A DNA stretch of 53,208 nucleotides. Source: a virus. Its lineage: Duplodnaviria > Heunggongvirae > Uroviricota > Caudoviricetes. The stretch is from IMG/VR virus record IMGVR_UViG_2671181011_000016; one strand, given 5' to 3'. Below the pieces are notes generated by a model. The model was given only the letters and a program-made list of their open reading frames with translations. It made no database searches and was not told the origin of the DNA. Each line of letters opens with the position of its first letter. The stretch's first letter is position 1. This document shows, piece after piece, positions 8,027-40,515 of this stretch. A program made the translations under genes and the position numbers.

Positions 8027-8700
8027 TTGTCAGATCTCCATATTGAATTGGTCTGTCGAACATACGCGGGCCGCATTTGCTCGCGGCGGCTTAACAGTCC
8101 GGCATTGTCATGATGCAAAACAGTGTTATCGCCCAGGTAAATCATCGCGTGACATGGGTCAGCGCCTTTAAACGGCTGACGGATAATCACATCACCAGGC
8201 TGAATGCTTTTCGCGTCAACCATGAAAAACCCGTTCAATGGCAGGTTTTTTATGTACAGGTTTTCCCCACGCAGCCACCACCCATCGTGGCGCTCAAAGT
8301 CCGGTAGATCCACGCCGCACAGGTGATAGGCATCACGGAAAAGCGAATAGCAATCTGTTTTCCCGTGCTCAAATTTACGGCCCAACAGGTGCGCCACCGG
8401 GCGGAATTTTCTAACCCTGCCACCGGAACACAAATACCACGGCAGGCCGGAAATAACCTGCTGTTGTCGATCCCGCGCTGACAATACCAATGAATCATTA
8501 GTATGTGAGTGGAAAACGGCTGTTATAACACCCAATTCGTCAGCTTTGATATAATCGTCAGGCGAGATTTTAAAGCTGTTGTGCGGCGTTTCAGACACGT
8601 TAGCGCACGGGTAAAAATAATCGTTATCTATCACCAGCCCGCACACTTCCTCGCGCGGGTGGGCTGCCGCATAGCGAATCATTTTATCTTCAAGTGCCAT
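7969..8700 (-). CDS. K: tail assembly protein, lambda K-like (JAMM/MPN plus NlpC/P60 domains)
   Basis: 243 aa; JAMM-like HSH..D motif (AVFHSHTNDS) and C-terminal Cys-containing NlpC/P60-like part; position between L and I. Confidence 0.7.
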   Translation of the reverse strand: MALEDKMIRYAAAHPREEVCGLVIDNDYFYPCANVSETPHNSFKISPDDYIKADELGVITAVFHSHTNDSLVLSARDRQQQVISGLPWYLCSGGRVRKFRPVAHLLGRKFEHGKTDCYSLFRDAYHLCGVDLPDFERHDGWWLRGENLYIKNLPLNGFFMVDAKSIQPGDVIIRQPFKGADPCHAMIYLGDNTVLHHDNAGLLSRREQMRPAYVRQTNSIWRSDKCSSLDLRAIFEDITAKCV

Positions 8701-9407: not shown

Positions 9408-9460
9408 TTTATCACCTTGTCATTTTGTGATCTCAATCACGCTAAATCATGCCAAAACGG

Positions 9461-9691: not shown

Positions 9692-9705
9692 GAGGTTAAC
9701 GAAAA

Positions 9706-10056
9706 ATGCAAAAATACTCGTTAGAAGTGTGGACCGATAAATGTGAATGGGAGCGCATGGGCCTGTTTGATACATATGTCGAAGCTCGTGATGAAGGTCG
9801 CGAATTGCTACGCTGTTGGTCTAACGCTCGTGATTTTGATATTACTCCGGTCCAAGTACCTGACAAGGTGGAAGAGATGAACCCGAAAGATATTAACTTT
9901 AACGTCAATGTTGAATTTGCAGGCTCTATGGATCAGGCTTGCCCTGGTGAAATCCACGCAAAAGGCTTCCCGGCTGACGATCCTGAGGCAAAACGCGAAT
10001 ACGAAAAAGCGGCGAAAGACTTCTGCATTGATAACCTGGGCGCGTTCGATAAATAA
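9706..10056 (+). CDS. hypothetical acidic protein (moron A2)
   Basis: 116 aa; RBS GAGAGG; rich in Asp/Glu; no recognisable domain. Confidence 0.6.
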   Translation: MQKYSLEVWTDKCEWERMGLFDTYVEARDEGRELLRCWSNARDFDITPVQVPDKVEEMNPKDINFNVNVEFAGSMDQACPGEIHAKGFPADDPEAKREYEKAAKDFCIDNLGAFDK

Positions 10057-10065
10057 GGCGGCAAC

Positions 10066-10314
10066 ATGGGGCGGCGCAATCACGGCGATTATGTGTACAC
10101 GTTGAAACAGGCCGCCCGCCTCGTCGGTTATCATGAGCACGAATTTATTGATTTGCTGATTGAGCGCGGGATACTGTACCAGGTATGTTTAACGCTGTAC
10201 CCGAAAGCAAAATACCTACAGGAAAAGTTATTCATCATCATGACGGATGAAAACCAGGTTAATCATTCATTCGTCACTGATAATGGCGTTAATTATCTGC
10301 GTGATAACTTATAG
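10066..10314 (+). CDS. hypothetical small protein with possible HTH (moron A3)
   Basis: 82 aa; RBS AAGGCGG; segment LKQAARLVGYHEHEFIDLLIERGIL looks helix-turn-helix-like. Confidence 0.5.
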   Translation: MGRRNHGDYVYTLKQAARLVGYHEHEFIDLLIERGILYQVCLTLYPKAKYLQEKLFIIMTDENQVNHSFVTDNGVNYLRDNL

Positions 10315-10322
10315 GACTGTAT

Positions 10323-10526
10323 ATGTTAAAGTACGACGGTCAAAAAATGGTTAGGTTTACGGGTTTTGCTAAAGGTAACAATAGAGAATTAACAGAGTAT
10401 TACAGTTTAAATATTGGTGACGTTTACCGCGTGGAAGAATGTCTGCATTCAATTAATTCTTTAATAATTATAAATAAAGAAAATCAAGGGGTGCTTGTTA
10501 CATTTAACGAAGTGGAGTTACCTTAA
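10323..10526 (+). CDS. hypothetical protein (moron A4)
   Basis: 67 aa; tightly packed after A3; AT-rich codons. Confidence 0.45.
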   Translation: MLKYDGQKMVRFTGFAKGNNRELTEYYSLNIGDVYRVEECLHSINSLIIINKENQGVLVTFNEVELP

Positions 10527-10616
10527 TCAATAAAGCGACGAAGTGATTGGAAATGTTTTGGTAGTGGTTGGCGCGATTGCCATCGTTTATGCCTTTCTGA
10601 GCTAATGGAGTGGATC

Positions 10617-10754
10617 ATGAAAATCGAAGTTTTAGCGCTAATCGCAATGGGCTTGATAGTATTTGGCGTGCACGCTGCGGATTGGGACTGGAGCGCAATA
10701 GCTGAGAATATGGCGCACGCTCACCCGATTGGATTAGTGCACATGAATTTTTAA
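10617..10754 (+). CDS. small hydrophobic protein (moron A5)
   Basis: 45 aa; N-terminal hydrophobic stretch IEVLALIAMGLIVFGVHA (signal/TM-like); RBS GGAGTGG. Confidence 0.45.
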   Translation: MKIEVLALIAMGLIVFGVHAADWDWSAIAENMAHAHPIGLVHMNF

Positions 10755-10795
10755 CACAAACCCCGCTTCGGCGGGGTGTTATAGGTAGGTGAGAT

Positions 10796-10972
10796 ATGAA
10801 AGAGGGTGTGACTTATCAGCATGTGTATACATTTGAAATTTACCGCATATGTGATGGTTATGTTGAAGAGTATAAAATCTTCCCCCGTGGATACTGGAAG
10901 AGAGTTAAGATTTCTGTAAGGTTATTAAAGAAAATGTTTAAAAAAGGATTAATTCAAGAAATTGATTTTTAG
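10796..10972 (+). CDS. hypothetical basic protein (moron A6)
   Basis: 58 aa; RBS AGGTGAG 6 nt upstream of ATG. Confidence 0.5.
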   Translation: MKEGVTYQHVYTFEIYRICDGYVEEYKIFPRGYWKRVKISVRLLKKMFKKGLIQEIDF

Positions 10973-10980
10973 TAAACAAT

Positions 10981-11020
10981 AAAAAAAAGGGGGGGGTACC
11001 CCCTTATTGTTTTATTTGTC
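10981..11020. terminator. rho-independent terminator ending moron cassette A
   Basis: A8 run, G-run / TAC / C-run hairpin, then TTATTGTTTTATTT. Confidence 0.65.
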
Positions 11021-11098
11021 GTGACAACTTTCTATTTCATAGATGATCGTCATTCCTACCGCGATAATAAATACCATTACTAAGCCATCAACCAGCAT
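11012..11098 (-). CDS. micro-ORF encoding a 28-aa hydrophobic peptide
   Basis: MLVDGLVMVFIIAVGMTIIYEIESCHDK; ATG 2 nt after the stop of the upstream gene (TAATATG); single predicted TM helix. Confidence 0.35.
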   Translation of the reverse strand: MLVDGLVMVFIIAVGMTIIYEIESCHDK

Positions 11099-11099
11099 A

Positions 11100-11285
11100 T
11101 TAAACACCCTCAATCAAGAATAAATATTCCTTCCCTTCGTAAGATCTGCACCCCACGTACCCGTCGCCGTAGTCATGCAGATACCAGGTATCCCCTTTAT
11201 CACTCACCACTGTGAGATTATCGATCTGGTAGTCTTCGAATAGCGTAAATGATTCATCGCCAGCTTTAACGCACATCCCGTACAT
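11100..11285 (-). CDS. hypothetical protein coupled downstream of M
   Basis: 61 aa; strong RBS AAAGGGGG; start directly after the M stop. Confidence 0.5.
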   Translation of the reverse strand: MYGMCVKAGDESFTLFEDYQIDNLTVVSDKGDTWYLHDYGDGYVGCRSYEGKEYLFLIEGV

Positions 11286-11295
11286 ATTGCCCCCT

Positions 11296-11649
11296 TTAAT
11301 TCATCACTTGCTCAAACGTCGCGGTTAGCGTGAATACAGGGCCGTCCTTCGTCATGCTCCATTTTCGGCAGACAAAAAGCCTTTGCACCCCATCCATCGA
11401 CGGCGACCAGTAAAAAGCCTCGACAGCGCCGCGCGCCCTCAAGAATGCTTCCGCCTGGATCGCTACATTCCCACCATCGCCGCATCCTGCACTACTGCCT
11501 TTAAAAACCAGGGTGTAACTATCAAGCAACGTGTTAATCCCTTTCGCCTGGCGCTGTTCATAACCATCACCAAGTTTAACGACCGACACATTTGGTTCCC
11601 TGGTCACGCTGTAGCTTCTTTGCGGCGTCCATCTGAAAACTTCTGGCAT
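11296..11649 (-). CDS. M: minor tail protein, lambda M-like
   Basis: 117 aa; matches lambda gpM pattern (FRW.P...GDGY.QR...G.N, KWS......ATFEQV.N). Confidence 0.8.
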   Translation of the reverse strand: MPEVFRWTPQRSYSVTREPNVSVVKLGDGYEQRQAKGINTLLDSYTLVFKGSSAGCGDGGNVAIQAEAFLRARGAVEAFYWSPSMDGVQRLFVCRKWSMTKDGPVFTLTATFEQVMN

Positions 11650-11735
11650 GATTCCCCCTATAAGTTACATATTGCATACATCTTTACGCGCTTCTACGCG
11701 AAAAATGAGAAATTCATCACAAGAATTATAACCAG

Positions 11736-11777
11736 TTTACAAAATGGCTTCACATAGGGCGTGACAAGATGTATATA
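11736..11777 (+). promoter_or_regulatory. sigma70-like promoter of moron cassette B with upstream TTTACAAAATGG motif
   Basis: motif 11736-11747, -35 TTCACA (11749-11754), 17-bp spacer, -10 TATATA (11772-11777). Confidence 0.6.
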
Positions 11778-11818
11778 GAAAGCAAGAAGAAAAAGCAGTA
11801 CCGACAAAGGGGGACAAT

Positions 11819-11974
11819 ATGGAACGCTATGTGGTTGTGATGCTGAACAACGCATTCGAACAGGTGGAGGTGGCGATAGTCAAAGGCTTTGATGACGCAT
11901 TCAAATACGGTCAATTCATGATGAACGCGAAGGAAAATGAGTACCGTGATTTCTTCCTGAAAGTGGTCAACTAA
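11819..11974 (+). CDS. hypothetical protein (moron B1)
   Basis: 51 aa; RBS AAAGGGGGA; MERYVVVMLNNAFEQ... Confidence 0.55.
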   Translation: MERYVVVMLNNAFEQVEVAIVKGFDDAFKYGQFMMNAKENEYRDFFLKVVN

Positions 11975-11992
11975 TGGATTGCGGGGTGGGTT

Positions 11993-12247
11993 ATGAAATT
12001 GGTAGCGATTGGTAAAAATCTGAAAGCACAGAAAAACGCACAGGACCGGATCATCAAAAAGGGCAAGGCTTTATTAAATGCTTTCCTGAGAAAAGAGGCC
12101 ACCCCCAAAAAATTACGCGATGGTTACGGTTATAAATTTGATATTAACCCCGATTGGCGGTTATTCAGCGAAGATTTAAAGGCGTGGTTAATTATCGACC
12201 ATCTGGAATATAACAGACACTGTGGGGTTAAAGGGGCGCATAAGTAA
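11993..12247 (+). CDS. hypothetical basic protein (moron B2)
   Basis: 84 aa; RBS GGGGTGGG; Lys-rich N-terminus. Confidence 0.55.
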   Translation: MKLVAIGKNLKAQKNAQDRIIKKGKALLNAFLRKEATPKKLRDGYGYKFDINPDWRLFSEDLKAWLIIDHLEYNRHCGVKGAHK

Positions 12248-12354
12248 GGCGGGCATGAAGGGCGATAAATTCACCCGGCGGGGGAACTGGAATGTTTGAC
12301 AGGTAATTTTGGATAGGGTGTATCGCGCGGAATGGTTGTTTATAAATACGAAAA

Positions 12355-27480: not shown

Positions 27481-27951
27481 TTATTCTTTGCGTAAACACT
27501 GCGTTTTGATGTAGCCCTGAAGTGCGGTTATCTTCGCGTCTTTCTCTTTTAGTTGTTCTCTGAGGGATAGATAAGCCGATTCAGCGTCGGGAGTGAGTCT
27601 ACAGGCGGCTCCATCAATGGCGCTGGCGGATCCGGCGGGGTCGGACACTCGCACGGGTATTGCGTTGACGCGCAACCGGATAGTACCGTTATCAATACCA
27701 GTGCGCAGATCGGCAATGTCAGATCTGATAGCTTTAATCTCATCGTGATACCTCTTATCAAGTTTTGACAGTTCGGCGTTTCGCTCCTTCATTTGCTGTA
27801 TGGTGTTACTCGCTGTTTTTAATGCGCCTTGCGTTGTCGTTAGTTCTTCCTGTAAGCGCGTTACAGCTCCCTGTGTCTGACATAGTGCAGCGGTAAGCCC
27901 GACGATAATGCAAACAACCACGGCGATGATTAACGTCTTCACCTTGTCCAT
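27481..27951 (-). CDS. Rz: i-spanin Rz
   Basis: 156 aa; N-terminal TM helix then coiled-coil periplasmic domain; directly downstream of the endolysin with overlap; contains embedded Rz1. Confidence 0.8.
27549..27743 (-). CDS. Rz1: o-spanin Rz1 (lipoprotein, embedded in Rz in another frame)
   Basis: 64 aa from ATG with RBS AAGAGG: signal peptide with lipobox LSGC, Pro-rich mature part; fully inside the Rz ORF. Confidence 0.75.
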   Translation of the reverse strand: MRLKLSDLTLPICALVLITVLSGCASTQYPCECPTPPDPPAPLMEPPVDSLPTLNRLIYPSENN

Positions 27952-28430
27952 TTCTCACCCCATTCGCAAACGGCATATTCAACATCGCGGCGGTTTACCA
28001 GGCCTTGCCACTTCTTACCGCCAGCGTATACCCAGCGCTTAAGCTGTGCGCACGCTTCTGATTTCTTGCCGTCATTGAGTAGCTTTAATAAGGTTGATGT
28101 TTTGAAGTTGGTTGCGCCTACGTTATAGGCGAAGGAATAAAGTGCTGCGCGGGTAAAATCTGATATTTCGACTTTGATATATGGGTCAATCGCTTTTGCG
28201 GTCTTATGTAGATCTTTGTTCAACAAAGCATCGCATTCTGATTGCGTGTAAGTCTTCCCAAGCATGATGTCTTTTCCGGTGTGACCGTAGCAAACAGTCC
28301 ATACACCAACAACATCACGATAAGGATCGTATTCCACGCCCTCTAATGGCTTAATCATCACCGCCGCAATAGCGATCGCCCCACCAGCCGCCGCCGCAAC
28401 AATCTTGTTTTTCAGCGATTGGCTAATCAT
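27939..28430 (-). CDS. SAR endolysin (T4-type lysozyme, GH24)
   Basis: 163 aa; N-terminal weakly hydrophobic Ala/Gly-rich SAR segment; catalytic-type E..D..T spacing ([16 protein letters not shown]); ATG abuts holin stop. Confidence 0.85.
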
Positions 28431-28631
28431 TTACTTATTCCCCATTCGCGCGTCGTGTTCCTCTTGCGCTCGCTTGTTCTCCTGTGATTTGAAGTAATAA
28501 TTAACGGCAAATGTGCCTACGGTTGATAAGATACCCACAAAGACGGCAATGTCATTGATGGTTATCGCGCCGAAAAAAGCAGTTACGGCCCCAGTCACAT
28601 ACGCACACGCCTCCCGTATTCTGTCGAACAT
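28431..28631 (-). CDS. holin (pinholin-like, two TM domains)
   Basis: 66 aa; two hydrophobic segments and charged C-terminus; resembles phage 21 S-type pinholin; paired with a SAR endolysin; RBS GGAGGA. Confidence 0.8.
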   Translation of the reverse strand: MFDRIREACAYVTGAVTAFFGAITINDIAVFVGILSTVGTFAVNYYFKSQENKRAQEEHDARMGNK

Positions 28632-28643
28632 AGATTTTCCTCC

Positions 28644-28673
28644 AACAAAACAAAAACCCGGCGCGGGGCCGGG
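28644..28673 (-). terminator. intrinsic terminator immediately upstream of the holin gene (tR'-like)
   Basis: minus-strand hairpin CCCGGCCCCGCGCCGGG followed by TTTTTGTTTTGTT, about 10 nt before the holin RBS. Confidence 0.7.
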
Positions 28674-28701
28674 TAGTTACAGTTTCGCATTGTTAGGTAA
28701 T

Positions 28702-28730
28702 ATTTTAATCTGTTTGTTTTCGACCCACAA
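28702..28730 (-). promoter_or_regulatory. candidate late promoter (pR'-like)
   Basis: minus strand -35 TTGTGG, 17-bp spacer, -10 TAAAAT, 25-40 nt upstream of the terminator hairpin. Confidence 0.45.
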
Positions 28731-28738
28731 ATACGGCT

Positions 28739-28966
28739 TTAACGGTAAGGGCCAAGCAAACGAACAAGCCATTCTTTGTATTTGGCGGCGACGTGTTTCG
28801 GTGCAAAATATCCTTGCACTTCCTTACCGCCTCGCCACTCCCTTCTAAATTCGCATTCGTTTTGATACCCCTTTCCGCTTTTACTATCCAGCCAGCAAGC
28901 AGGCGAGTAACCTTTTTCACTCCCGAACCGATGCCATATTAATGACAGCAAAATCATTTCTTCCAT
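28739..28966 (-). CDS. hypothetical protein
   Basis: 75 aa ORF; stop codon begins the 18-bp duplicated junction element. Confidence 0.45.
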   Translation of the reverse strand: MEEMILLSLIWHRFGSEKGYSPACWLDSKSGKGYQNECEFRREWRGGKEVQGYFAPKHVAAKYKEWLVRLLGPYR

Positions 28967-28987
28967 ACTGCCCCCACAAATACGGCT

Positions 28988-29164
28988 TTACCGCTTCCTG
29001 TATATCAGGCCATTATCAAGCAGCATTTGCATGTGCCAACGATCCACCATGCTTGATTCCCAGCATTTATTCTCTGGATACTGAATCATCACCTTATCAC
29101 CTTTAACCAAATAGGCGATATTAAATAACATGTGCAAATAAATACCGTCTTCGATCTCGTTCAT
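28988..29164 (-). CDS. hypothetical protein
   Basis: 58 aa; ATGA overlap with upstream gene; stop codon begins the second copy of the 18-bp element. Confidence 0.4.
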   Translation of the reverse strand: MNEIEDGIYLHMLFNIAYLVKGDKVMIQYPENKCWESSMVDRWHMQMLLDNGLIYRKR

Positions 29165-29391
29165 AGCTCGCCAACCTTTACCAGTTCACCAGCATCAAGA
29201 AATATTTTAATTGTTTCTCGCGTCGTCTTAATGATTGGTGCTACCCACTCGCCACCGCCAACACGGATACGAATATCATCACCTTCCACGCGGTAAAACA
29301 GCCTGTCGACTACTGTTGCTGCGTACACGCCATCTTCAATCATTTTTGCGCTCCTTAATGGCTCGCATGATGTTAATACGCATAGCGTCAC
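29161..29391 (-). CDS. hypothetical protein
   Basis: 76 aa ORF in a tightly packed series. Confidence 0.4.
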   Translation of the reverse strand: MTLCVLTSCEPLRSAKMIEDGVYAATVVDRLFYRVEGDDIRIRVGGGEWVAPIIKTTRETIKIFLDAGELVKVGEL

Positions 29392-29578
29392 TGAATGCGT
29401 ATATAGTAATGAAAGGCCAGAAGACTAGCTCGAACCAAATAATGCCGTCACTATCAACAGCTTTCTGAAAAGCGCCCATTAAAATGACGCCAGCCAGGTA
29501 AATGATAACTACCGCAATAATAAGGCATTCAATCATAATCATCCTCATCGTCTTCATGTTCAGCCAGGAACTCATCAA
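29336..29578 (-). CDS. hypothetical membrane protein
   Basis: 80 aa (start uncertain); two hydrophobic segments. Confidence 0.4.
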   Translation of the reverse strand: MMSSWLNMKTMRMIMIECLIIAVVIIYLAGVILMGAFQKAVDSDGIIWFELVFWPFITIYAFSDAMRINIMRAIKERKND

Positions 29579-29843
29579 CCACGCGGCAAGTCACTGGCGG
29601 GATGTATTCGAAATCATCAGAATCGAGATCAAGCGTCCGGCTGTCGCCGTCATCGTCCAGCGTATTCATCCCTAATTCACCGAAAGGGCCGTACCCAATA
29701 CAGCCCAGGTATTCGCATCCAGTAGTAAAGCCAGGGTATTCGCCTTTACAACGGATTTTGTAAGGTCTATTTGATGCGCTCAATTTTTGATGCTCCGCTT
29801 TCTTCTTCAGTAATTTTGTACTCTGCCACCAGTTCCGCACCAA
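29529..29843 (-). CDS. hypothetical protein
   Basis: 104 aa ORF; acidic C-terminus; start uncertain. Confidence 0.4.
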   Translation of the reverse strand: MVRNWWQSTKLLKKKAEHQKLSASNRPYKIRCKGEYPGFTTGCEYLGCIGYGPFGELGMNTLDDDGDSRTLDLDSDDFEYIPPVTCRVVDEFLAEHEDDEDDYD

Positions 29844-30090
29844 GCAATTTCACTTCAGCATCAGGGTAAGGATTAAGTACCAGTGATGCGAAAACAAAAT
29901 GTCTGACGTGATTCACATTATCAAGGTCTTTCACGTCAAAAGGCGGCTCAGTTAAGTGGAAGCATTTAACGTGCGCATCGTCTTCAGTAGCCACACGGAA
30001 ACATGCGCCACGCTCACCTGCGAATTGTCCAAAGTCTTTATTTTCTGGAAAAGATCCACGGAAAACTTTAACGCTGATAAATTTAGACAT
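29767..30090 (-). CDS. hypothetical protein
   Basis: 107 aa ORF. Confidence 0.4.
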   Translation of the reverse strand: MSKFISVKVFRGSFPENKDFGQFAGERGACFRVATEDDAHVKCFHLTEPPFDVKDLDNVNHVRHFVFASLVLNPYPDAEVKLLGAELVAEYKITEEESGASKIERIK

Positions 30091-30093
30091 TGT

Positions 30094-30348
30094 TTATTCT
30101 CCTTCATAAAGCACAGTAACCAGTTCAGCATCAATTAGCGTGTTATGATCTGTATAAAACCCGTGGCGCAGAATTGAGGCAAGGCCGGCCACTTTACGCC
30201 ACATAGGGGTCGATTCGTTCAGATATTCTTTCTCCCTTTTTTCGCTGTATACCAATTCATAAAACCGACCACGATTAACATCTTCAATCACGCGGATATA
30301 TTTACCATCAAATCGGCTATTACCGCGCCATAGTCTGATCACAACCAT
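30094..30348 (-). CDS. hypothetical protein
   Basis: 84 aa ORF. Confidence 0.4.
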   Translation of the reverse strand: MVVIRLWRGNSRFDGKYIRVIEDVNRGRFYELVYSEKREKEYLNESTPMWRKVAGLASILRHGFYTDHNTLIDAELVTVLYEGE

Positions 30349-30350
30349 AA

Positions 30351-30650
30351 TTAAAACTCCGCACCAGGTAAGCTACGCGCTTTGTTTACCGCATCGTGCT
30401 TTAACGATAAACTTGCGTAATAATTCATAATCCCCATATTACCGACTGGTATTTCATTATTTTCTGCCTTTATTCTTAATAACTGGTTTTTAGTGAAAAT
30501 CCTGTCTCCATCGGTGATATATAACCAGTCGCAGCGCTTACCAACTACAACATGAGATCTGCCTAAACTGTCTTTAAATTCATAATTGCAGAAGACATCA
30601 CCTTTAGGCACTTCAACAAAACAGCACGCTATGAATTTATCGCTTTTCAT
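30351..30650 (-). CDS. hypothetical protein
   Basis: 99 aa ORF. Confidence 0.4.
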   Translation of the reverse strand: MKSDKFIACCFVEVPKGDVFCNYEFKDSLGRSHVVVGKRCDWLYITDGDRIFTKNQLLRIKAENNEIPVGNMGIMNYYASLSLKHDAVNKARSLPGAEF

Positions 30651-30691
30651 GATTCAACCCTTCTGGTTTGATTGGCCATCCGGCCCCGCGC

Positions 30692-30832
30692 TTATCCTTC
30701 TTTGCCTCCTTTGAACCCCAGACACTCCGCGTATTCGTCAATGCTTAATGCTTCTTCACCTGGTGCCAGTAGTTCGAAGTATCTGGCATATAACTCAAAC
30801 ACCCAGGCAGGATATTTTGCGTTTGCGTTCAT
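30692..30832 (-). CDS. hypothetical small protein
   Basis: 46 aa from ATG with RBS GGGAGG (MNANAKYPAW...); first gene downstream of the 30865-30908 promoter. Confidence 0.45.
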   Translation of the reverse strand: MNANAKYPAWVFELYARYFELLAPGEEALSIDEYAECLGFKGGKEG

Positions 30833-30864
30833 CTTCTTGCCTCCCATCCGCCTTTCTGTGCCCA

Positions 30865-30908
30865 TATATAACAAAACGGCACTGCCGTAACAATGCCATT
30901 TTGTATAC
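30865..30908 (-). promoter_or_regulatory. sigma70-like promoter with upstream GTATACAAAATGG motif
   Basis: minus strand: motif (30896-30908), -35 TTGTTA, 17-bp spacer, -10 TATATA (30865-30870). Confidence 0.55.
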
Positions 30909-30916
30909 TTTGTGAT

Positions 30917-31740
30917 TCAGATCACGTTATTATCACAAGCGAAAGCCTCGCAACTTTCAGAACAACTACCTGAATCAAACTCTTTCTTGTTAATAATGCT
31001 GCTGCGTATCTCTTCTGTTTCCTCCAGCCTGAACATTGCTATTACGTCCTGCAATGCCATTTTGTTGCGATACATTTCCGGCTTACCTTCCTTGCAATCA
31101 TGTTCTGCAATGCAACTACAAAACTGGTCATATAGTTCAGGTTCATCCCTTGCTGCCAATGCCAACTTCTTGTTGCTCTTCTTAATGCAGAAAACACAAT
31201 TACCAAGATGTTCGGGGATCTCTAAATCAAATGACTGCCCTGACCACCAATCAATAATATCCTGCTTCTCAAAGTCACTTATATCTGCCAGATAGTGAAA
31301 ACCCTCCCTTTCGTGTAGTCTGCGTGGCTCATCTGCCCTAATACCTAACCAGCGTTCATAATTGCCTTTGCCATAGTGTTCATCACAATACTTTTCAAAA
31401 GGTAGTTGTTTCATCCTGTGAGTACAGAATGCCCCGCCGATATAAGGATGGCCATAATGTTCCAGGATTCTCCGCCACGGAACAAGGTCACATCTTATAT
31501 CATCAATACCAATGATCTCGTAACTGAATTTACCGTATTTAATTGCAGGAGGAACGCAGCGGAGGCAAGTTATTTTAATGTTAAAATGTGAGGATAAATT
31601 CTTTATGAACTCGTATGTTTTAGGGTGTTCACCCCTGTATCCATGAAGATAACCTCTGCGTCAGGGTGAATTTTCAATACCTCTAGAGTCATGCAAGCAG
31701 AAGTCCTTCCACCACTGAATGATATTACTTGATGTTTCAT
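30917..31740 (-). pseudogene. PAPS reductase-like (PP-loop ATPase family) gene disrupted by a 1-nt frameshift
   Basis: N-terminal frame MKHQVISFSGGRTSA...FMDTG stops after 45 codons; reading continues in another frame (EHPKTYEFIKN... to 30917); shift lies at a G4 run (31633-31636); a fifth G would restore FMDTGGEHPKTYEF. Confidence 0.65.
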
Positions 31741-31756
31741 AGGCAACAACCTTAAA

Positions 31757-32023
31757 TCAGAAAACCCCTTTATAATCTGCCGTGTATTTTGCCACTAATT
31801 TCCAGTCACAATAGTTTTCCATGTCGCGCGGTTGCCAGCCTCTCATGCCTACAGCACCACGCACGCCGTGGCGACGATAATTATCGTTATAGTCAGCTAC
31901 GCACCATGGCTGAAGTACAAACATATAATTGGCCTCGTTAACCAGGATCGCCATCTGCTTTCCTGTTGCCTTATCTTTCGCCCGGAAATAACTCACCCTG
32001 ATTTTCATTTTTAATAACCTCAA
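31757..32023 (-). CDS. hypothetical protein
   Basis: 88 aa ORF. Confidence 0.4.
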   Translation of the reverse strand: MRLLKMKIRVSYFRAKDKATGKQMAILVNEANYMFVLQPWCVADYNDNYRRHGVRGAVGMRGWQPRDMENYCDWKLVAKYTADYKGVF

Positions 32024-32219
32024 TCAACATTTCTTCTTCCAGGTTGGCAGGACGTTTACGGAACACGCCAGCGAAGACAAGATCTTCCAGTAGGTCTTTA
32101 CTTTTGAATAACCACTCTTTCATTACTATCCCGTCATCACTGCGATATACGACGCCGTTTTTAATAAAATAAAAAGTACGGGTGTTTGTCTGGAGGTATA
32201 GATCTTCGTAAACATCCAT
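31971..32219 (-). CDS. hypothetical protein
   Basis: 82 aa ORF; start uncertain. Confidence 0.35.
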   Translation of the reverse strand: MDVYEDLYLQTNTRTFYFIKNGVVYRSDDGIVMKEWLFKSKDLLEDLVFAGVFRKRPANLEEEMLIEVIKNENQGELFPGER

Positions 32220-32223
32220 GATA

Positions 32224-32451
32224 TTAACCCTCGACTACTTGCAGCCCGCGCCCCTTGTCGCCGACGAAGTCTGCCAGGCTGAACGTATACGACCATGCCG
32301 GATTAATGTAATGGTCATCAGCGCCAGCGGCAATTAGGTCAGCACCGTTAATCACGCAAGTTACATCATCACTATGAACGACGTTAACCACCTTACCAAC
32401 AACCTGTTTCAGTGACGGATAACCGTGATCGTGCAAGAATTTTACTTTCAT
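32224..32451 (-). CDS. hypothetical protein
   Basis: 75 aa ORF. Confidence 0.4.
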   Translation of the reverse strand: MKVKFLHDHGYPSLKQVVGKVVNVVHSDDVTCVINGADLIAAGADDHYINPAWSYTFSLADFVGDKGRGLQVVEG

Positions 32452-32726
32452 TAATCTGTCTCCCAGCGTTCAATGCTGATTAAGAAGTCACGGATAGCAT
32501 GGCGTTCGTCGCGCGTTGGTTTACGTTTCCGGTAGATCCTGAAATCGAACCATTCTTTTTCCTGCTCAAAATCCAGGTCGTAAGCAAGCGCCTCAATGTA
32601 TCCGCATTCGTGATACCAGTACGCAACGCCAGCACGAACAAAAAAGCGGGTTTTATCCCGCTTGTGCTCATAGATACGCATATTCACCCCGTTATGCAAT
32701 TGTGTAGCTGTCAACCAGCTTTTCAT
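32451..32726 (-). CDS. hypothetical protein
   Basis: 91 aa ORF. Confidence 0.4.
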   Translation of the reverse strand: MKSWLTATQLHNGVNMRIYEHKRDKTRFFVRAGVAYWYHECGYIEALAYDLDFEQEKEWFDFRIYRKRKPTRDERHAIRDFLISIERWETD

Positions 32727-32922
32727 CTTTCATTCTGGCAAGCTGTGCGATGTTCATCGTGTAGCCACCTTCTAAGAAAAACCACTCCGCAGTCCTGCGA
32801 CGAAAAGCAATATCATCATAGTGATGCGTCCATGTAATAATCGCCACGCGTTTTCCATCAGTGGCGAACATAGATAACGCATTATCAACAACGTCGATAG
32901 CCTGCCAGATTTTTAATTCCAT
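32692..32922 (-). CDS. hypothetical protein
   Basis: 76 aa ORF. Confidence 0.35.
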   Translation of the reverse strand: MELKIWQAIDVVDNALSMFATDGKRVAIITWTHHYDDIAFRRRTAEWFFLEGGYTMNIAQLARMKDEKLVDSYTIA

Positions 32923-33278
32923 GATTTATCCCCGTAGATCTTGAATAGTTCACACGCTTCCTGATTTTCAAATATATTCATATGCAGGTCACGCAGGCGG
33001 CGCATTGTGCGGAAGCGCGGCCTGAACTCCTGGCTACGTTTAATGTATTTGCCGCCAATTGAATAAATATGCCCGTATGCGTACCATCTGTTACCTACCC
33101 ATATATCATATTCTTTGCCTTCGTAATTAAATTTTATCGTTAGCTCGCCAACCTCAACTATTAACCCTTTGTCAATAATGTCATTAAGCATTTCGTCCCA
33201 TTCTTTGAGGAATGGTTGTTGATAAAAACCAAAAAGCGTATTTACAGCATGGCAGAGATAGTCAATGATTATTTGCAT
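32913..33278 (-). CDS. hypothetical protein
   Basis: 121 aa ORF. Confidence 0.4.
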   Translation of the reverse strand: MQIIIDYLCHAVNTLFGFYQQPFLKEWDEMLNDIIDKGLIVEVGELTIKFNYEGKEYDIWVGNRWYAYGHIYSIGGKYIKRSQEFRPRFRTMRRLRDLHMNIFENQEACELFKIYGDKSWN

Positions 33279-33282
33279 ATTA

Positions 33283-33495
33283 TTACCACATCATATAATA
33301 AACGTTCTCGTCAGCTAACATGTCAGCCACATCCTGCGTCATGTGTCTGGCCTCAAGGAAAAAATCCTCACTATGCCATTCCCTCACAAGCATACGCGCC
33401 CATTTACGGCGCTGGCGTTTATTACGTCGCAGATCATCAAAAGCCTTTAATGCTTTGTCGTATGCCCTTACAAGGCGCTTACGGTTACTTTTCAT
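33283..33495 (-). CDS. small basic protein, tandem paralog 1
   Basis: 70 aa; MKSNRKRLVRAYDKALKAFDDLRRNKRQRRKWAR...; about half of the first 40 residues are identical to the adjacent gene. Confidence 0.5.
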   Translation of the reverse strand: MKSNRKRLVRAYDKALKAFDDLRRNKRQRRKWARMLVREWHSEDFFLEARHMTQDVADMLADENVYYMMW

Positions 33496-33507
33496 TTTTC
33501 ACCCCAA

Positions 33508-33696
33508 TTAACCAAATAAATCCTCAGCAACAACATCATAAGCCTGATCAGCGGTTAATTTAGTATCACCAAAATTCCATTCCTTTGCTAATTTCCTGGC
33601 TATTCGTCTTCTCTTGCGCTTATTGTTTTTCAGGTCGTCAAAATAACACAAACATTTATCATACGCCCTTACAAGGCGCTTAAGGTTACTTTTCAT
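33508..33696 (-). CDS. small basic protein, tandem paralog 2
   Basis: 62 aa; MKSNLKRLVRAYDKCLCYFDDLKNNKRKRRRIAR... Confidence 0.5.
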   Translation of the reverse strand: MKSNLKRLVRAYDKCLCYFDDLKNNKRKRRRIARKLAKEWNFGDTKLTADQAYDVVAEDLFG

Positions 33697-33699
33697 ATT

Positions 33700-33999
33700 T
33701 TAAAACCTATATTGCCAATAAATATCGCAGTGGATAGCGAAAACCTTAACAGGTTCGTCACCAAACAAAGGATGCTGAATCGTCTTTATTGTGTACCCCA
33801 TGTAAGGGAGAATAAGAATCCGCTTCTTATCGTCGTTTGCAGGGTATCCCAATTTAAGAATCAATCTTGTGTAGTCGCGTCCCTCCAGACGTTTTCGCCA
33901 ATAGTCATTATAAAGCCGGTATTCCTCCACCTTCTTTCCCGCGCGTATGGCGTGGAAGTATTCACCTTTTAAATTCAAATGTAAGTGTTTATTTGCCAT
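33700..33999 (-). CDS. ASCH / DUF3850-like (PUA-fold) protein
   Basis: 99 aa from MANKHLHLNLKGEYFHAIRAGKKVEEYR, a pattern typical of ASCH-type domains; track ORF extends to 34035. Confidence 0.45.
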   Translation of the reverse strand: MANKHLHLNLKGEYFHAIRAGKKVEEYRLYNDYWRKRLEGRDYTRLILKLGYPANDDKKRILILPYMGYTIKTIQHPLFGDEPVKVFAIHCDIYWQYRF

Positions 34000-34321
34000 C
34001 GCTATGATCCTGTAAACAGTCGTTATAGCCTTCAATGTATCCAGTTATCCCAGTGTTGCTAACTGACCAATCAGCCGAACGGCGTTTGATGGCCTTGTCC
34101 ATAGTCATAGCGTCAACCGGATCTGTTAGGTCTATATATTTCCGCAATTCTGTAACTATTACCGCCCTTAATTGTTGTGCATTTGAGTACGTCCTTGCTT
34201 TGTCAGTTATTCCGTTTACAAGCTCCCTAAATTCATGATCCTTTAATTTAGGCTTCATTGTCGTTGCTCCGTCCGTAAATATGTACTGGCTCAACTGGCA
34301 CGGCTGGCAATTCACCATCAT
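33989..34321 (-). CDS. hypothetical protein
   Basis: 110 aa ORF; true start probably an internal Met (MKPKLKDHEF...). Confidence 0.35.
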   Translation of the reverse strand: MMVNCQPCQLSQYIFTDGATTMKPKLKDHEFRELVNGITDKARTYSNAQQLRAVIVTELRKYIDLTDPVDAMTMDKAIKRRSADWSVSNTGITGYIEGYNDCLQDHSDGK

Positions 34322-34448
34322 TTAACGCGCTTGCCATACCCAATATCAATCGCGCTTCTGCACCAGTGACTTTCTTACACCATGCACCGCCCGTTTTATC
34401 TTCGAACAAGATAACGGCAAACTTATCGTTTATTTCCAGCTTATCCAT
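34248..34448 (-). CDS. hypothetical protein
   Basis: 66 aa ORF. Confidence 0.35.
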   Translation of the reverse strand: MDKLEINDKFAVILFEDKTGGAWCKKVTGAEARLILGMASALNDGELPAVPVEPVHIYGRSNDNEA

Positions 34449-35170
34449 TATTCACCCCGCGTCACTCGTTTAATTTCGTTATCTGCCCGCGCCTCTTCTT
34501 TGAACAATTCAGCAATGGCGTCTTCATAGAAAACCCGGTATTTCTTCCACCATGTTGATCGGCTTACCGGAAAAACAAGCTGATTAACCGCCTGCCGGAC
34601 AAGATCTACAGGGAAACGCGAGTACCCGCGCCCGCCGCAGTGATGGCACGTTTTGAACACTGGCATTTCCGCCGCTTCACTGGCTGCTTTATCCGGTACT
34701 TCGCCACGACCCTTGCATTGTTTACAATGATTGCGAACTGTCCCATGCCCCTTGCATTTTTTGCAAAGGTGTTTTTCTCCGTATTCGTCAAACGTAAATT
34801 TATATCCGCCGCACTCCACGCAAGTTTTTTCCGTCGCGGCACTCTGGCAATAATCCCGAAACGCGAAAACGGCAACAAGAATAATGAGATCATTGCGTTT
34901 GGCCTCGTCCAGTTCCATAACGTATTCATAATCTTTTGCCATAGCCCTTAAACGCTCTGTAAGCAAAACTACGGCCTTATGTTTTTCTGCTTGTGATAGT
35001 TCCATCTTCCCTAAAAAAGCACTGTAACCAAGCTCTACGCGCGATTGCGCCATACCTGCGGCAGTTAGTGCATCCGTAGTATTAAGCGCATCCGGGGACG
35101 TGCCCCGGCTTTCATCTGATAAACGCGGCGATTTTGGGAAGTGGAATTTTAGAATTGATTCCAAATTCAT
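34448..35170 (-). CDS. zinc-finger protein with four CxxCxGxG repeats; possible antiterminator Q (phage 82/21 type)
   Basis: 240 aa; CVECGGYK, CKKCKGHG, CKQCKGRG, CHHCGGRG; lies downstream of ninG/rusA as Q does in lambdoid phages; Q assignment is positional. Confidence 0.4.
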   Translation of the reverse strand: MNLESILKFHFPKSPRLSDESRGTSPDALNTTDALTAAGMAQSRVELGYSAFLGKMELSQAEKHKAVVLLTERLRAMAKDYEYVMELDEAKRNDLIILVAVFAFRDYCQSAATEKTCVECGGYKFTFDEYGEKHLCKKCKGHGTVRNHCKQCKGRGEVPDKAASEAAEMPVFKTCHHCGGRGYSRFPVDLVRQAVNQLVFPVSRSTWWKKYRVFYEDAIAELFKEEARADNEIKRVTRGE

Positions 35171-35352
35171 TATTTGCCCCCGTAACGCGCAACAAGTCTT
35201 TTGCGATCAGATATTGCCTGCGCCAACTTTCTTTCAAGCTCTTTCAGCGCAAGCAATTCTCGCATGTGGAAAGCCTGTATTTGTCGCACAGTCTCTAAAT
35301 CATGCTCATCGCGCTGAATATCTATTTGCAGATCTTTAATTTCATTTTTCAT
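35170..35352 (-). CDS. hypothetical coiled-coil protein
   Basis: 60 aa ORF. Confidence 0.4.
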   Translation of the reverse strand: MKNEIKDLQIDIQRDEHDLETVRQIQAFHMRELLALKELERKLAQAISDRKRLVARYGGK

Positions 35353-35618
35353 TTCTCTACCACCTTAAACCTAGTTTTAAAATTACCCTGCAAGAAATAC
35401 TCATTGCTTGATGGAAAATACTGGACTAATCGCCATGCGTCTGCTTCATCGAAATCAGATACAAGATCGTCTTGCAAAATGAAGGCAAAGCATCCGTGCT
35501 TTATAAAACCAGAATATTTTTTACCTTCCGTGAAAAAATCGACGCTTGATTGAATACATTTAACAACAATGTTTATTTGTTCCATTGTCACCCCACATAT
35601 TAGTTTCGTATTCACCAA
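35349..35618 (-). CDS. hypothetical protein
   Basis: 89 aa ORF; start uncertain, overlaps the rusA 3' end. Confidence 0.35.
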   Translation of the reverse strand: MVNTKLICGVTMEQINIVVKCIQSSVDFFTEGKKYSGFIKHGCFAFILQDDLVSDFDEADAWRLVQYFPSSNEYFLQGNFKTRFKVVEK

Positions 35619-35988
35619 TATCCGGTAACAGGTCGCCGCGTTCGCGAACTTTAATAAACAATCGCCCGCCTTTTACCTTCCGGCAGCGAACAATTTTTAT
35701 TGCGTCGATTTGTCCGTCATCCTTCCAGAACTCTGCATAAGTAAGACTATCAAAAAGGCATTTAGGGATATTATCCAGATCCCTGGTTCGGTTATCCGGC
35801 GGCGCAACATGAATGGTAATTGCCAGTCGGCAAGATAGGTTGATGTTTAAATTTAATAGCTCGATGATGTCTCTTACCTGCTCCCGGTACTCTTTCCCAA
35901 CCTTGCTGATATAGTGAAAACCTCGTGAATGTCGGTAATAGCGGTTATTCGATGGTGGGTAAGGCAGACTAAATGTATATTCGTTCAT
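35560..35988 (-). CDS. rusA: Holliday junction resolvase RusA
   Basis: N-terminus MNEYTFSLPYPPSNNRYYRH and RDLDN..K..FD.LT motifs match RusA by eye. Confidence 0.8.
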   Translation of the reverse strand: MNEYTFSLPYPPSNNRYYRHSRGFHYISKVGKEYREQVRDIIELLNLNINLSCRLAITIHVAPPDNRTRDLDNIPKCLFDSLTYAEFWKDDGQIDAIKIVRCRKVKGGRLFIKVRERGDLLPDIGEYETNMWGDNGTNKHCC

Positions 35989-36590
35989 GCTGCCTTTCTC
36001 CTTAAGGCGTCTAATTTAGCCTGATAGACTTTTATGATTTCCTTACATTCTTCTATCGTCCATTTGTGAGTTTCGTTGTTGTTCTCCAGAGCTACCACCC
36101 TGGCGAGGCCAATTTTTCGAATCAGCGCCGGGCGATACCCTCCGATGTTGCCGTCTAGTGTCTGGTTGCAGTGCCTGCATTGCTTGTGACAATTATCCTC
36201 GTTGAAACGAAGGTGTCCGGCGGCGGCTACCGTCCTGTAATGGCCTGCATCCCACCCGCATTGCTCACCGTAGTAAGTCCCGCATGATATGCACGGCAAT
36301 CGCGAGTCACGCTCGCGTATATAAGCGTTAAAAACGTTTTGCGCCTGTTTAATCCAGTAGCTACGCGGATTTAACTGCTTCCTCTTCCGGCTGCGCTCTT
36401 CCCGCTGGCTATCACGGCGCTTCTTCCGTTCCATAGCCTTCATAGCCTTCTCACGGTCGCGGCATAACTGGTCAAACTTCAGTTCTTCCAGACATTCATC
36501 GCTGCACCACGTTTGATTATGATATTTAGGCTCAAAAAAAACGCCGCAGCACTTGCAACGGCGTCTTATGGGTTTTTTAGGGTTTTGCAT
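35985..36590 (-). CDS. ninG: recombination protein NinG (Rap)
   Basis: 201 aa from ATG with RBS GGGGTGG; strong by-eye match to lambda NinG (PRSYWIKQAQ, RLPCISCGT, WDAGHYRT, LRFNE.N.HKQC, RWTIEECK). Confidence 0.85.
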   Translation of the reverse strand: MQNPKKPIRRRCKCCGVFFEPKYHNQTWCSDECLEELKFDQLCRDREKAMKAMERKKRRDSQREERSRKRKQLNPRSYWIKQAQNVFNAYIRERDSRLPCISCGTYYGEQCGWDAGHYRTVAAAGHLRFNEDNCHKQCRHCNQTLDGNIGGYRPALIRKIGLARVVALENNNETHKWTIEECKEIIKVYQAKLDALRRKAA

Positions 36591-36781: not shown

Positions 36782-36940
36782 AATGCTCTCTCCTTTTCAG
36801 GTGATTTCTACGCATTTCAGCGCTGCCGGATTTTTAAAGAGCATTTCGTTTGCTTGAAGTATACAAAATGGATACACCAGAACAAGGCAAAAAGCGCCAT
36901 TATGTGATCTGTATCACGCAATGACGCCATTATGTAAACT

Positions 36941-40416: not shown

Positions 40417-40515
40417 CTTGTTTCCCTCCGTACCGTAAACCTTTTGATTTAAGTTTACAAAACGGATTCGCGATCACAGTACAAAATGTATAGCTATGTG
40501 ATCGCAATCACAATA

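Follow-up and report, generated by a model that had tools for sequence, protein, structure and literature searches.

A block of 22 small genes lies between the Q antiterminator gene and a PR′-like late promoter in an mEp021-like Escherichia coli prophage

The Q gene and the phage group

The DNA analyzed here, called the window in the following, is the complete viral record IMGVR_UViG_2671181011_000016 of 53,208 nucleotides (nt), to which all coordinates, strands and open reading frames (ORFs) refer. Between about 25 and 45 kb its genes are carried on the minus strand, and the block under study extends from position 28739 to 34448, between a gene for a Q-like antiterminator and the holin gene. 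An earlier note on this DNA, called the original prediction below, had described about 20 packed small genes over these 5.7 kb and explained them either by an unusually large accessory load or by a wrong assignment of Q. The block itself was confirmed: it holds 22 minus-strand ORFs of 46–165 amino acids (21 genes if both fragments of a PAPS reductase are counted as one), and the coordinates fit exactly, as position 34448 is the final base of the Q stop codon and at the same time the A of the next ATG (TAATG), and position 28739 is the final base of the last small ORF. The Q gene itself is the following:

34448 to 35170, minus strand: Q, late antiterminator of the Q-lambda family, 240 amino acids, Pfam PF03589 with 101.5 bits (cut-off 26.7)

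PF03589 is the family named Q-lambda in the literature (PMC9388147). In the alignment with the Q-lambda structure 7ubm of the PDB (E-value 5e-39), residues 1–114 and 148–238 of the window protein correspond to residues 1–114 and 117–207 of Q-lambda, which spans the N-terminal segment, the helix-turn-helix body and the zinc-ribbon arm. The protein is 83–98% identical across all 51 relatives, and the nearest Q proteins outside the mEp group among sequenced phages belong to ordinary lambdoid or P22-like phages, with 28–39% identity. Judged by this full-length homology and by the Q-lambda-type promoter at the holin, which is described below, the gene is a genuine lambda-type Q, and the suspicion that it had been misassigned was not substantiated.

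The arm of the protein contains an insertion of ~33 residues relative to Q-lambda (residues ~115–147), which brings two additional CxxC motifs, four in total, and shows a weak match to DnaJ_CXXCXGXG. The Q proteins of the phages phi80, HK225 and SF10 are likewise longer than that of lambda.

By nucleotide similarity and synteny the window is assigned to the mEpimmI (mEp021-like) prophages of E. coli, a Nus-dependent, non-lambdoid phage group (PMC11893012). An 8-kb query around the block was matched by seven sequenced coliphages (mEp021, mEp010, mEp013, mEp044, mEp515, mEp554, and MagusPhagus) with 87–91% identity over 47–79% of the query, the gene order being kept. Related prophages with the same arrangement were found in 35 of 5426 complete E. 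coli genomes (~0.6%), with 16–26 hypothetical genes in the 30 records listed, and the lineage also occurs in many gut viromes. The set of 52 genomes used for the counts below consists of the window, the seven phages, one E. coli prophage and 43 loci from IMG/VR. Positions 27900 to 36300 of the window are 100% identical over 8249 nt to a contig of the Logan assembly of run ERR178168 (L056).

The late promoter at the holin and its distance from Q

The features at the downstream end of the block are the following:

28647 to 28730, minus strand: PR′-like late promoter cassette of ~84 bp, directly upstream of the holin gene
28725 to 28730, minus strand: −35 hexamer TTGTGG, with a 17-nt spacer to the −10
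28702 to 28707, minus strand: −10 hexamer TAAAAT, followed by ATTACCT and then AACAAT
28689 to 28694, minus strand: AACAAT, like a sigma-dependent pause element, 7 nt after the −10 and in the register of lambda
28652 to 28674, minus strand: t5-equivalent terminator, a hairpin with a 7-bp GC-rich stem and a U-run (U5GU4), −13.6 kcal/mol
28431 to 28631, minus strand: holin, the first late gene, phrog_20, identified from the annotation of relatives and from a Pfam holin match in L056
27939 to 28430, minus strand: endolysin, after the holin, with a Pfam lysozyme match in L056
27481 to 27951, minus strand: Rz/Rz1

The hairpin begins ~14 nt after AACAAT, and its U-run, which ends 15 nt before the holin start codon, is followed by the holin ribosome-binding site. 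It corresponds to the element TERM_5/t5 of mEp021, which is reported as an experimentally demonstrated terminator (PMC11893012), and a terminated RNA starting at PR′ is predicted to be ~45–48 nt long. The late promoter with terminator that had been expected next to the holin was thereby recovered in the sequence, and its PR′-like anatomy suggests that Q would act there. The 34-nt core of PR′ is present in a single copy in the window, with 0 expected by chance; a search for a second copy elsewhere in the window found none. In the 52 genomes the −10, the AACAAT and the hairpin stem show little or no variation next to genes that do vary, and conservation is also seen for the segment AAACAAAYRGAT upstream of the −10.

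The PR′ core lies 1.9–6.7 kb (8–28 ORFs) downstream of the Q stop codon in all 52 genomes and is adjacent to Q in none of them. The median distance is ~5.3 kb with 21–22 ORFs; the window, where the distance is 5.73 kb with 22 ORFs, comes 36th among the 52 in order of length and is typical of the set, so that the idea of an unusually large accessory load was not upheld. A block of small genes between Q and the promoter is kept in 52 of 52 genomes.

All 22 ORFs are located upstream of the −35 of PR′. They stand outside the slot of the Shiga toxin (Stx) phages, in which the stx genes lie downstream of PR′ and belong to the late transcript (PMC6266700). The analogy to this classic moron site, which had been drawn earlier, holds for the position between Q and the holin, but not for the cargo, which is downstream of PR′ there and upstream of it here. 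Because they precede PR′, the genes are beyond the reach of a Q-modified polymerase starting at this promoter; they probably belong to the early class and are not late-transcript cargo in the style of a toxin.

The genes of the block

The block contains the following genes, listed from Q toward the holin:

34248 to 34448, minus strand: A66, 66 amino acids, its ATG overlaps the Q stop codon, phrog_35000 (E-value 3e-41), family in 46 of 52 genomes
33989 to 34258, minus strand: B89, 89 amino acids, phrog_29262 (3e-52)
33700 to 33999, minus strand: C99, ASCH-like, ~99 amino acids, phrog_625 (2e-37), Pfam ASCH E-value 0.018, below the cut-off
33508 to 33696 and 33283 to 33495, minus strand: D62 and E70, tandem paralogues, both basic, both phrog_8758, hhalign probability 100%
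32913 to 33278, minus strand: F121, 121 amino acids, phrog_16975 (3e-61)
31757 to 32922, minus strand: block core with G76 (32692–32922), H76 (32451–32681), I75 (32224–32451), J82 (31971–32219), and K83 (31757–32008)
30917 to 31749, minus strand: PAPS-reductase-like pseudogene, 1-nt deletion near 31640, cassette in 3 of 52 genomes
30692 to 30832, 30351 to 30650 and 30094 to 30348, minus strand: M46, N99, and O84, with PHROG matches for M46 and O84, not for N99
29767 to 30090, 29529 to 29780 (start uncertain) and 29336 to 29542, minus strand: P107, Q83, and R68, with PHROG matches
29161 to 29343 and 28988 to 29164, minus strand: S60 and T58, tandem paralogues, both phrog_15318, hhalign probability 96%
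28739 to 28966, minus strand: U75, an ORF of 75 amino acids, phrog_23715 (8e-55), inside a 249-bp insertion (28724–28993)

The block is ~97% coding, with ~190 nt of intergenic sequence in total and frequent overlaps of stop and start codons. Matches to PHROG families were obtained for 20 of the 22 ORFs (E-values 1e-12 to 1e-61), which are therefore regarded as conserved phage proteins rather than chance ORFs; all of these families are of unknown function except the PAPS reductase. The domain searches proposed earlier for each ORF (Pfam, NCBIfam, and PHROGs) named the PAPS reductase and a sub-threshold ASCH domain, returned families of unknown function for the others, and matched none of the 22 ORFs to a nin family.

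The gene order is colinear among the relatives, with a cassette-like presence or absence of genes. Families of G76, H76, J82, and K83 occur in 52 of 52 genomes, whereas the other genes of the block are cassette-like. By their context, the proteins look like early accessory or host-takeover proteins, to which the four lineage-universal ones are added. Stx phages encode homologues of C99 in their ea (early-left) region, virulent phages encode others, and homologues of I75 occur in rV5-like virulent phages. The description of C99 as ASCH-like is weakly supported: its Pfam match stays below the threshold, but in RefSeq its homologues carry the names "ASCH domain-containing" or "RNA-binding." J82 shares 90% identity with gp41 of mEp021, a protein that mass spectrometry found in virions. 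Since at least 10 public contigs encode J82 without any change, this variant of the prophage has been sampled repeatedly.

The PAPS-reductase-like pseudogene, which the original prediction had also named, was verified. Its frameshift results from a single lost base (GGGGCTGAA to GGGGTGAA), an intact orthologue of 274 amino acids is present in an IMG/VR locus (L038), and after repair the window protein scores above the cut-off of Pfam PF01507. The same frameshift is found in the Logan assembly of ERR178168; as this contig is identical to this stretch of the window it may come from the same source, and the independence of the check is uncertain.

Tandem paralogues had been predicted as well, and two pairs were found, of which D62/E70 also shows a direct DNA repeat (D1). 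The idea of many distant paralogues among the small proteins was dropped after an all-against-all hhalign comparison, which supports the two tandem pairs only. Small membrane proteins had been expected in the plural, but R68 is the sole one predicted by a hydropathy scan. The pair S60/T58 forms the PR′-proximal end of the block in the relatives. The structure model of T58 has a predicted local distance difference test score (pLDDT) of 94 and a beta4-alpha-beta order; it gave no significant match in the PDB, the closest entries being uncharacterised small proteins from T7-like and T1-like phages. In their AlphaFold models, T58 and J82 share the same order of elements, namely four strands, a helix and a strand, and a comparison of the profiles of both proteins gave no significant similarity. 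Two structure predictions and the fold searches of block proteins yielded nothing informative.

The insertion with U75 is flanked by a 21-bp direct repeat CGnTAAAGCCGTATTTGTGGG (28973–28993 and 28724–28744), which duplicates a stop codon and the −35 region of PR′. This pattern resembles the gain of a cassette through recombination at a conserved boundary between gene end and promoter. Of the 35 related E. coli prophages, 10 contain U75, copies from other genomes show few amino acid changes, and tblastn against sequenced phages gave no match, its known copies being confined to prophages and viromes. Like the PAPS-reductase pseudogene, it is absent from all seven sequenced phages of the group.

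Entry and internal terminator of the early operon

Signals typical of an antiterminated early transcript were located upstream of Q and inside the block:

36834 to 36931, minus strand: entry to the operon segment with Q, comprising a t4-like hairpin, P2 and boxA of nutR2
36891 to 36931, minus strand: t4-like terminator hairpin with the tip GTGATACAGATCAC, −19.5 kcal/mol
36858 to 36884, minus strand: P2, promoter-like TTGTTC-16-TATACT, directly after the t4-like hairpin
36834 to 36843, minus strand: boxA TGCTCTTTAA of nutR2, just upstream of ninF-ninG-rusA-Q
32644 to 32663, minus strand: hairpin and U6 run resembling an intrinsic terminator, inside H76 at its 5′ end, −12.2 kcal/mol, z −3.5

The boxA TGCTCTTTAA falls at the position given for nutR2 in the description of the group (PMC11893012). 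The hexamers of P2 are conserved in ~50 genomes, with a variable spacer, and a promoter in this place, with a terminator before it and a nut site after it, would account for the third nut site of the group. The hairpin within H76 is kept in all 52 genomes; it is identical in 49, carries single changes in two and a compensatory stem change from G-C to C-G in one. Such conservation suggests that attenuation at this point, within a gene downstream of Q, is under selection.

Four features, i.e., the upstream entry, the internal terminator, the packing of the genes and their early-type relatives, fit together and lead us to infer a polycistronic early transcript which depends on antitermination. 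The packing, the common strand, the boxA of nutR2 upstream and the internal terminator also agree with a delayed-early region of the nin type, in which the dependence would be on the N-like protein Gp17.

A candidate promoter within the block

One further element separates the distal genes from the rest of the block:

30860 to 30925, minus strand: P3, candidate internal promoter, a non-coding element of 66 nt preceding M46

P3 starts with the palindrome GTGATCTGAATCAC, which matches nine of the ten positions of TGTGA-N6-TCACA, the core of the E. coli CRP consensus. It further carries TTGTTA-17-TATATA preceded by TGn, with the −10-like hexamer exactly 40 nt after the palindrome, these 40 nt ending in TTTTG, and the spacer contains a weak hairpin. 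An internal promoter bearing a motif had been predicted in this interval, and the conserved element fits this description, its promoter activity being that of a candidate.

The last nine genes (30832–28739) might form an autonomous unit under P3, controlled by cAMP-CRP or by a dimeric phage regulator of GTGA-N6-TCAC, and could then be expressed even in lysogens; this is compatible with an early-operon origin of the Q-proximal genes. In favor of such a unit, the element is matched in 38 fetched loci whatever gene precedes it (one of the 38 is apparently mis-registered), and the palindrome is centred at ~−60.5 from the presumed start, close to the class I position near −61.5. Sites of TGTGA-N6-TCACA with at most one mismatch number 8 in the window against 1.5 expected, a count reached by 0 of 100 shuffled sequences, and two sister elements share the 40-nt register. 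On the other hand, P3 has a poor −10 (TATATA or TATAAA), roughly half of the relatives carry a degenerate right half-site, the spacer hairpin with its T-run could be a weak terminator, although its −5.9 kcal/mol is no better than that of shuffles, and the palindrome at P2 (36904–36917) is merely the tip of the t4 terminator hairpin. An autonomous distal unit is thus a tentative option, and that P3 may lend the last nine genes some independence is possible but rather doubtful.

The palindrome GTGAT-N4-ATCAC as such occurs eight times in the window (five exact copies) against 1.7 expected, among others at 40498–40511, 36904–36917, 30912–30925, and 9427–9440, and also within coding sequence at 8323–8336. 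The three intergenic copies on the minus strand, of which the sister elements of P2 are located at 40.5 kb (P1) and at P3 inside the block, have an identical spacing of 40 nt to TTTTG and a −10-like hexamer. In the copy at 36.9 kb, the half-sites are conserved and the centre varies in ~50 relatives. A third, nutrient-gated early transcription unit, in which P2 with its CRP palindrome at ~−60 would drive ninF-ninG-rusA-Q and the block, is conceivable from this arrangement and unlikely on balance. If it existed, the supply of Q, the timing of lysis and the distal genes would be wired to host cAMP-CRP, and the third nut site would find an explanation.

Interpretation of the block

Taken as a whole, the block probably forms the distal end of the rightward early operon, conserved in some parts and cassette-like in others. 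The Q gene would then stand in the middle of this operon and not at its end, with its target PR′ 5.7 kb further on, before the holin. The 22 genes would share their transcript with ninF, ninG, rusA, and Q, the polymerase having been made resistant to termination by Gp17 at nutR1 and nutR2 and reading through the conserved terminator inside H76; the last nine genes may be transcribed from P3 in addition. Q translated from this shared transcript would act in trans at the distant PR′, where the t5 terminator lies ~20 nt beyond a sigma70-dependent pause element (about +1 to +7), and would switch on the genes for lysis and morphogenesis. The dependence on Gp17, the action of Q at PR′, the activity of P2 and P3 and the timing class are in this scheme deduced from the arrangement of the sequence elements.

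Several points weigh against this reading. The timing class of the 22 genes is taken from their position only, and the presence of the J82 homologue gp41 in virions would be more expected of a late protein. A polymerase modified by N and coming from upstream would pass t5 as well and may blur the separation of early and late transcription, and P3 could free the distal genes from the early operon. In PR′ itself, the weak −35 is swapped for unrelated sequence in 13 of 52 genomes (about a quarter), and the sequence 5′ of the −10 shows no co-variation with the two Q clades in the 52 genomes, so that a Q binding element is not assignable from the sequence.

If the genes were instead cargo of the late transcript, comparable to the morons of Stx phages, a Q-dependent promoter would have to lie at or after Q and the genes would be co-expressed with the lysis genes. 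The location between Q and the lysis genes resembles that in Stx and Gifsy-type prophages, and the virion-associated gp41 would fit a late gene. However, there is no space for such a promoter after Q, as the Q stop codon overlaps the next ATG in the window and the next coding sequence abuts or overlaps Q in every annotated relative. The PR′ core is a single copy at the far end of the block, the block contains a conserved terminator, and the promoter scan shows no minus-strand candidate between 34448 and 33184. This generic sigma70 scan gave 21 sites in the region against 23.7 in shuffled sequence, i.e., it is no richer than shuffles, and was therefore not used as evidence. Late cargo is accordingly rated as very improbable. 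Weaker still is the idea that the Q-like protein is not the late regulator and that a factor encoded beside the late promoter controls it: the unusual distance between Q and the promoter and the paralogues T58 and S60, which always abut the promoter region, speak for it, but the full-length Q-lambda homology and the Q-lambda-type promoter make it highly implausible.

With the block read as the distal part of the early operon, genes between Q and holin should not be assumed to be late and Q-dependent; the location of PR′ is needed first. The Q protein of lambda acts preferentially in cis according to older genetics, and textbook Q systems form one cassette in which the Q gene is followed by PR′, the pause site and the terminator. 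Since Q and PR′ are separated by 2–7 kb in every genome examined, this linkage appears dispensable. The analysis further defines a compact Q-lambda-type promoter-terminator unit of ~84 bp, and it singles out four lineage-universal small genes, one of which has a virion-associated homologue in mEp021.

Further observations in the window

If PR′ is constitutive, as assumed here, the PR′-t5 unit would produce its RNA of 45–48 nt in lysogens as well, and, with the same low probability as the nutrient-gated unit, this RNA could be a small RNA (sRNA), by analogy to StxS, which acts as an sRNA in Stx phages. Scans of the whole window with Rfam and for tRNAs gave no matches.

At ~9700–12250, a cluster of small plus-strand ORFs with ~40% G+C and a positive GC skew is embedded among minus-strand genes, probably for the tail, on the far side of the head and terminase genes. 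The cluster may be a moron or superinfection-exclusion island; a role in exclusion was considered because Lpp exclusion genes are described for the group (PMC11893012).

Comparison with known systems

The lambda Q-PR′ system was used as the main reference, with the Q-lambda family PF03589 and the structures 4mo1 and 7ubj–7ubn. The window shares with it the full-length homology of Q, a −10 followed after 6–7 nt by a −10-like pause element, an intrinsic terminator close to the promoter and the lysis genes as the first late genes. In lambda, the AACGAT element is an established sigma70-dependent pause element. The promoters read TTGACT-17-TAAATT-TGACTC-AACGAT in lambda and TTGTGG-17-TAAAAT-ATTACCT-AACAAT in the window, where the stretch from the −10 to the pause element lacks a TTGACT element like that of lambda. 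Further differences are the −35 of PR′, which starts 46 nt after Q in lambda but 5.7 kb and 22 ORFs after it in the window, the length of the terminated RNA (194 nt in lambda, ~45–48 nt in the window), and the Q arm, which is longer in the window by the insertion with the extra CxxC pair. Compared with the canonical Q cassette (PMC9388147), the pause element and the terminator are present, whereas PR′ is not adjacent to Q. In the Salmonella phage SF10, which has the closest Q outside the mEp group, Q and the holin are separated by a non-coding gap of 706 nt.

The Stx phages, with the order Q-PR′-tRNAs/stx-S (PMC6266700, PMC7547250), likewise carry several kb of accessory genes between Q and the holin. 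Their cargo is located downstream of PR′/tR′ and is Q-dependent, in contrast to the genes of the window on the early side of PR′.

The nin region of lambda (ninA–ninI, between P and Q) is similar in its packed, one-strand small early genes with overlapping stop and start codons, in its largely dispensable-looking content, in its mosaicism between relatives and in the need for N to pass internal terminators. It differs in that nin precedes Q, whereas the block of the window follows it, the homologues of ninF, ninG, and rusA being located upstream of Q.

The closest counterpart is the same locus in mEp021 (gp38–gp45, GenBank MH706966), which has the same Q, t5, and holin and encodes homologues of seven window ORFs. 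It comprises 8 genes in 2.0 kb, to which the window adds 14 ORFs. The paper on the group annotates Q, t5, and the holin, and its text contains no discussion of the late promoter, of this interval, of the palindrome or of CRP (PMC11893012). The gain in knowledge is a modest and incremental one, as the phage group is published and all components, i.e., the Q-lambda homologue, the PR′ unit, the nin-like array and the N-like antitermination, are of known kinds. It is the topology which, as far as the sequence indicates, differs from the known systems, with Q and its presumed target uncoupled by an array of variable genes.

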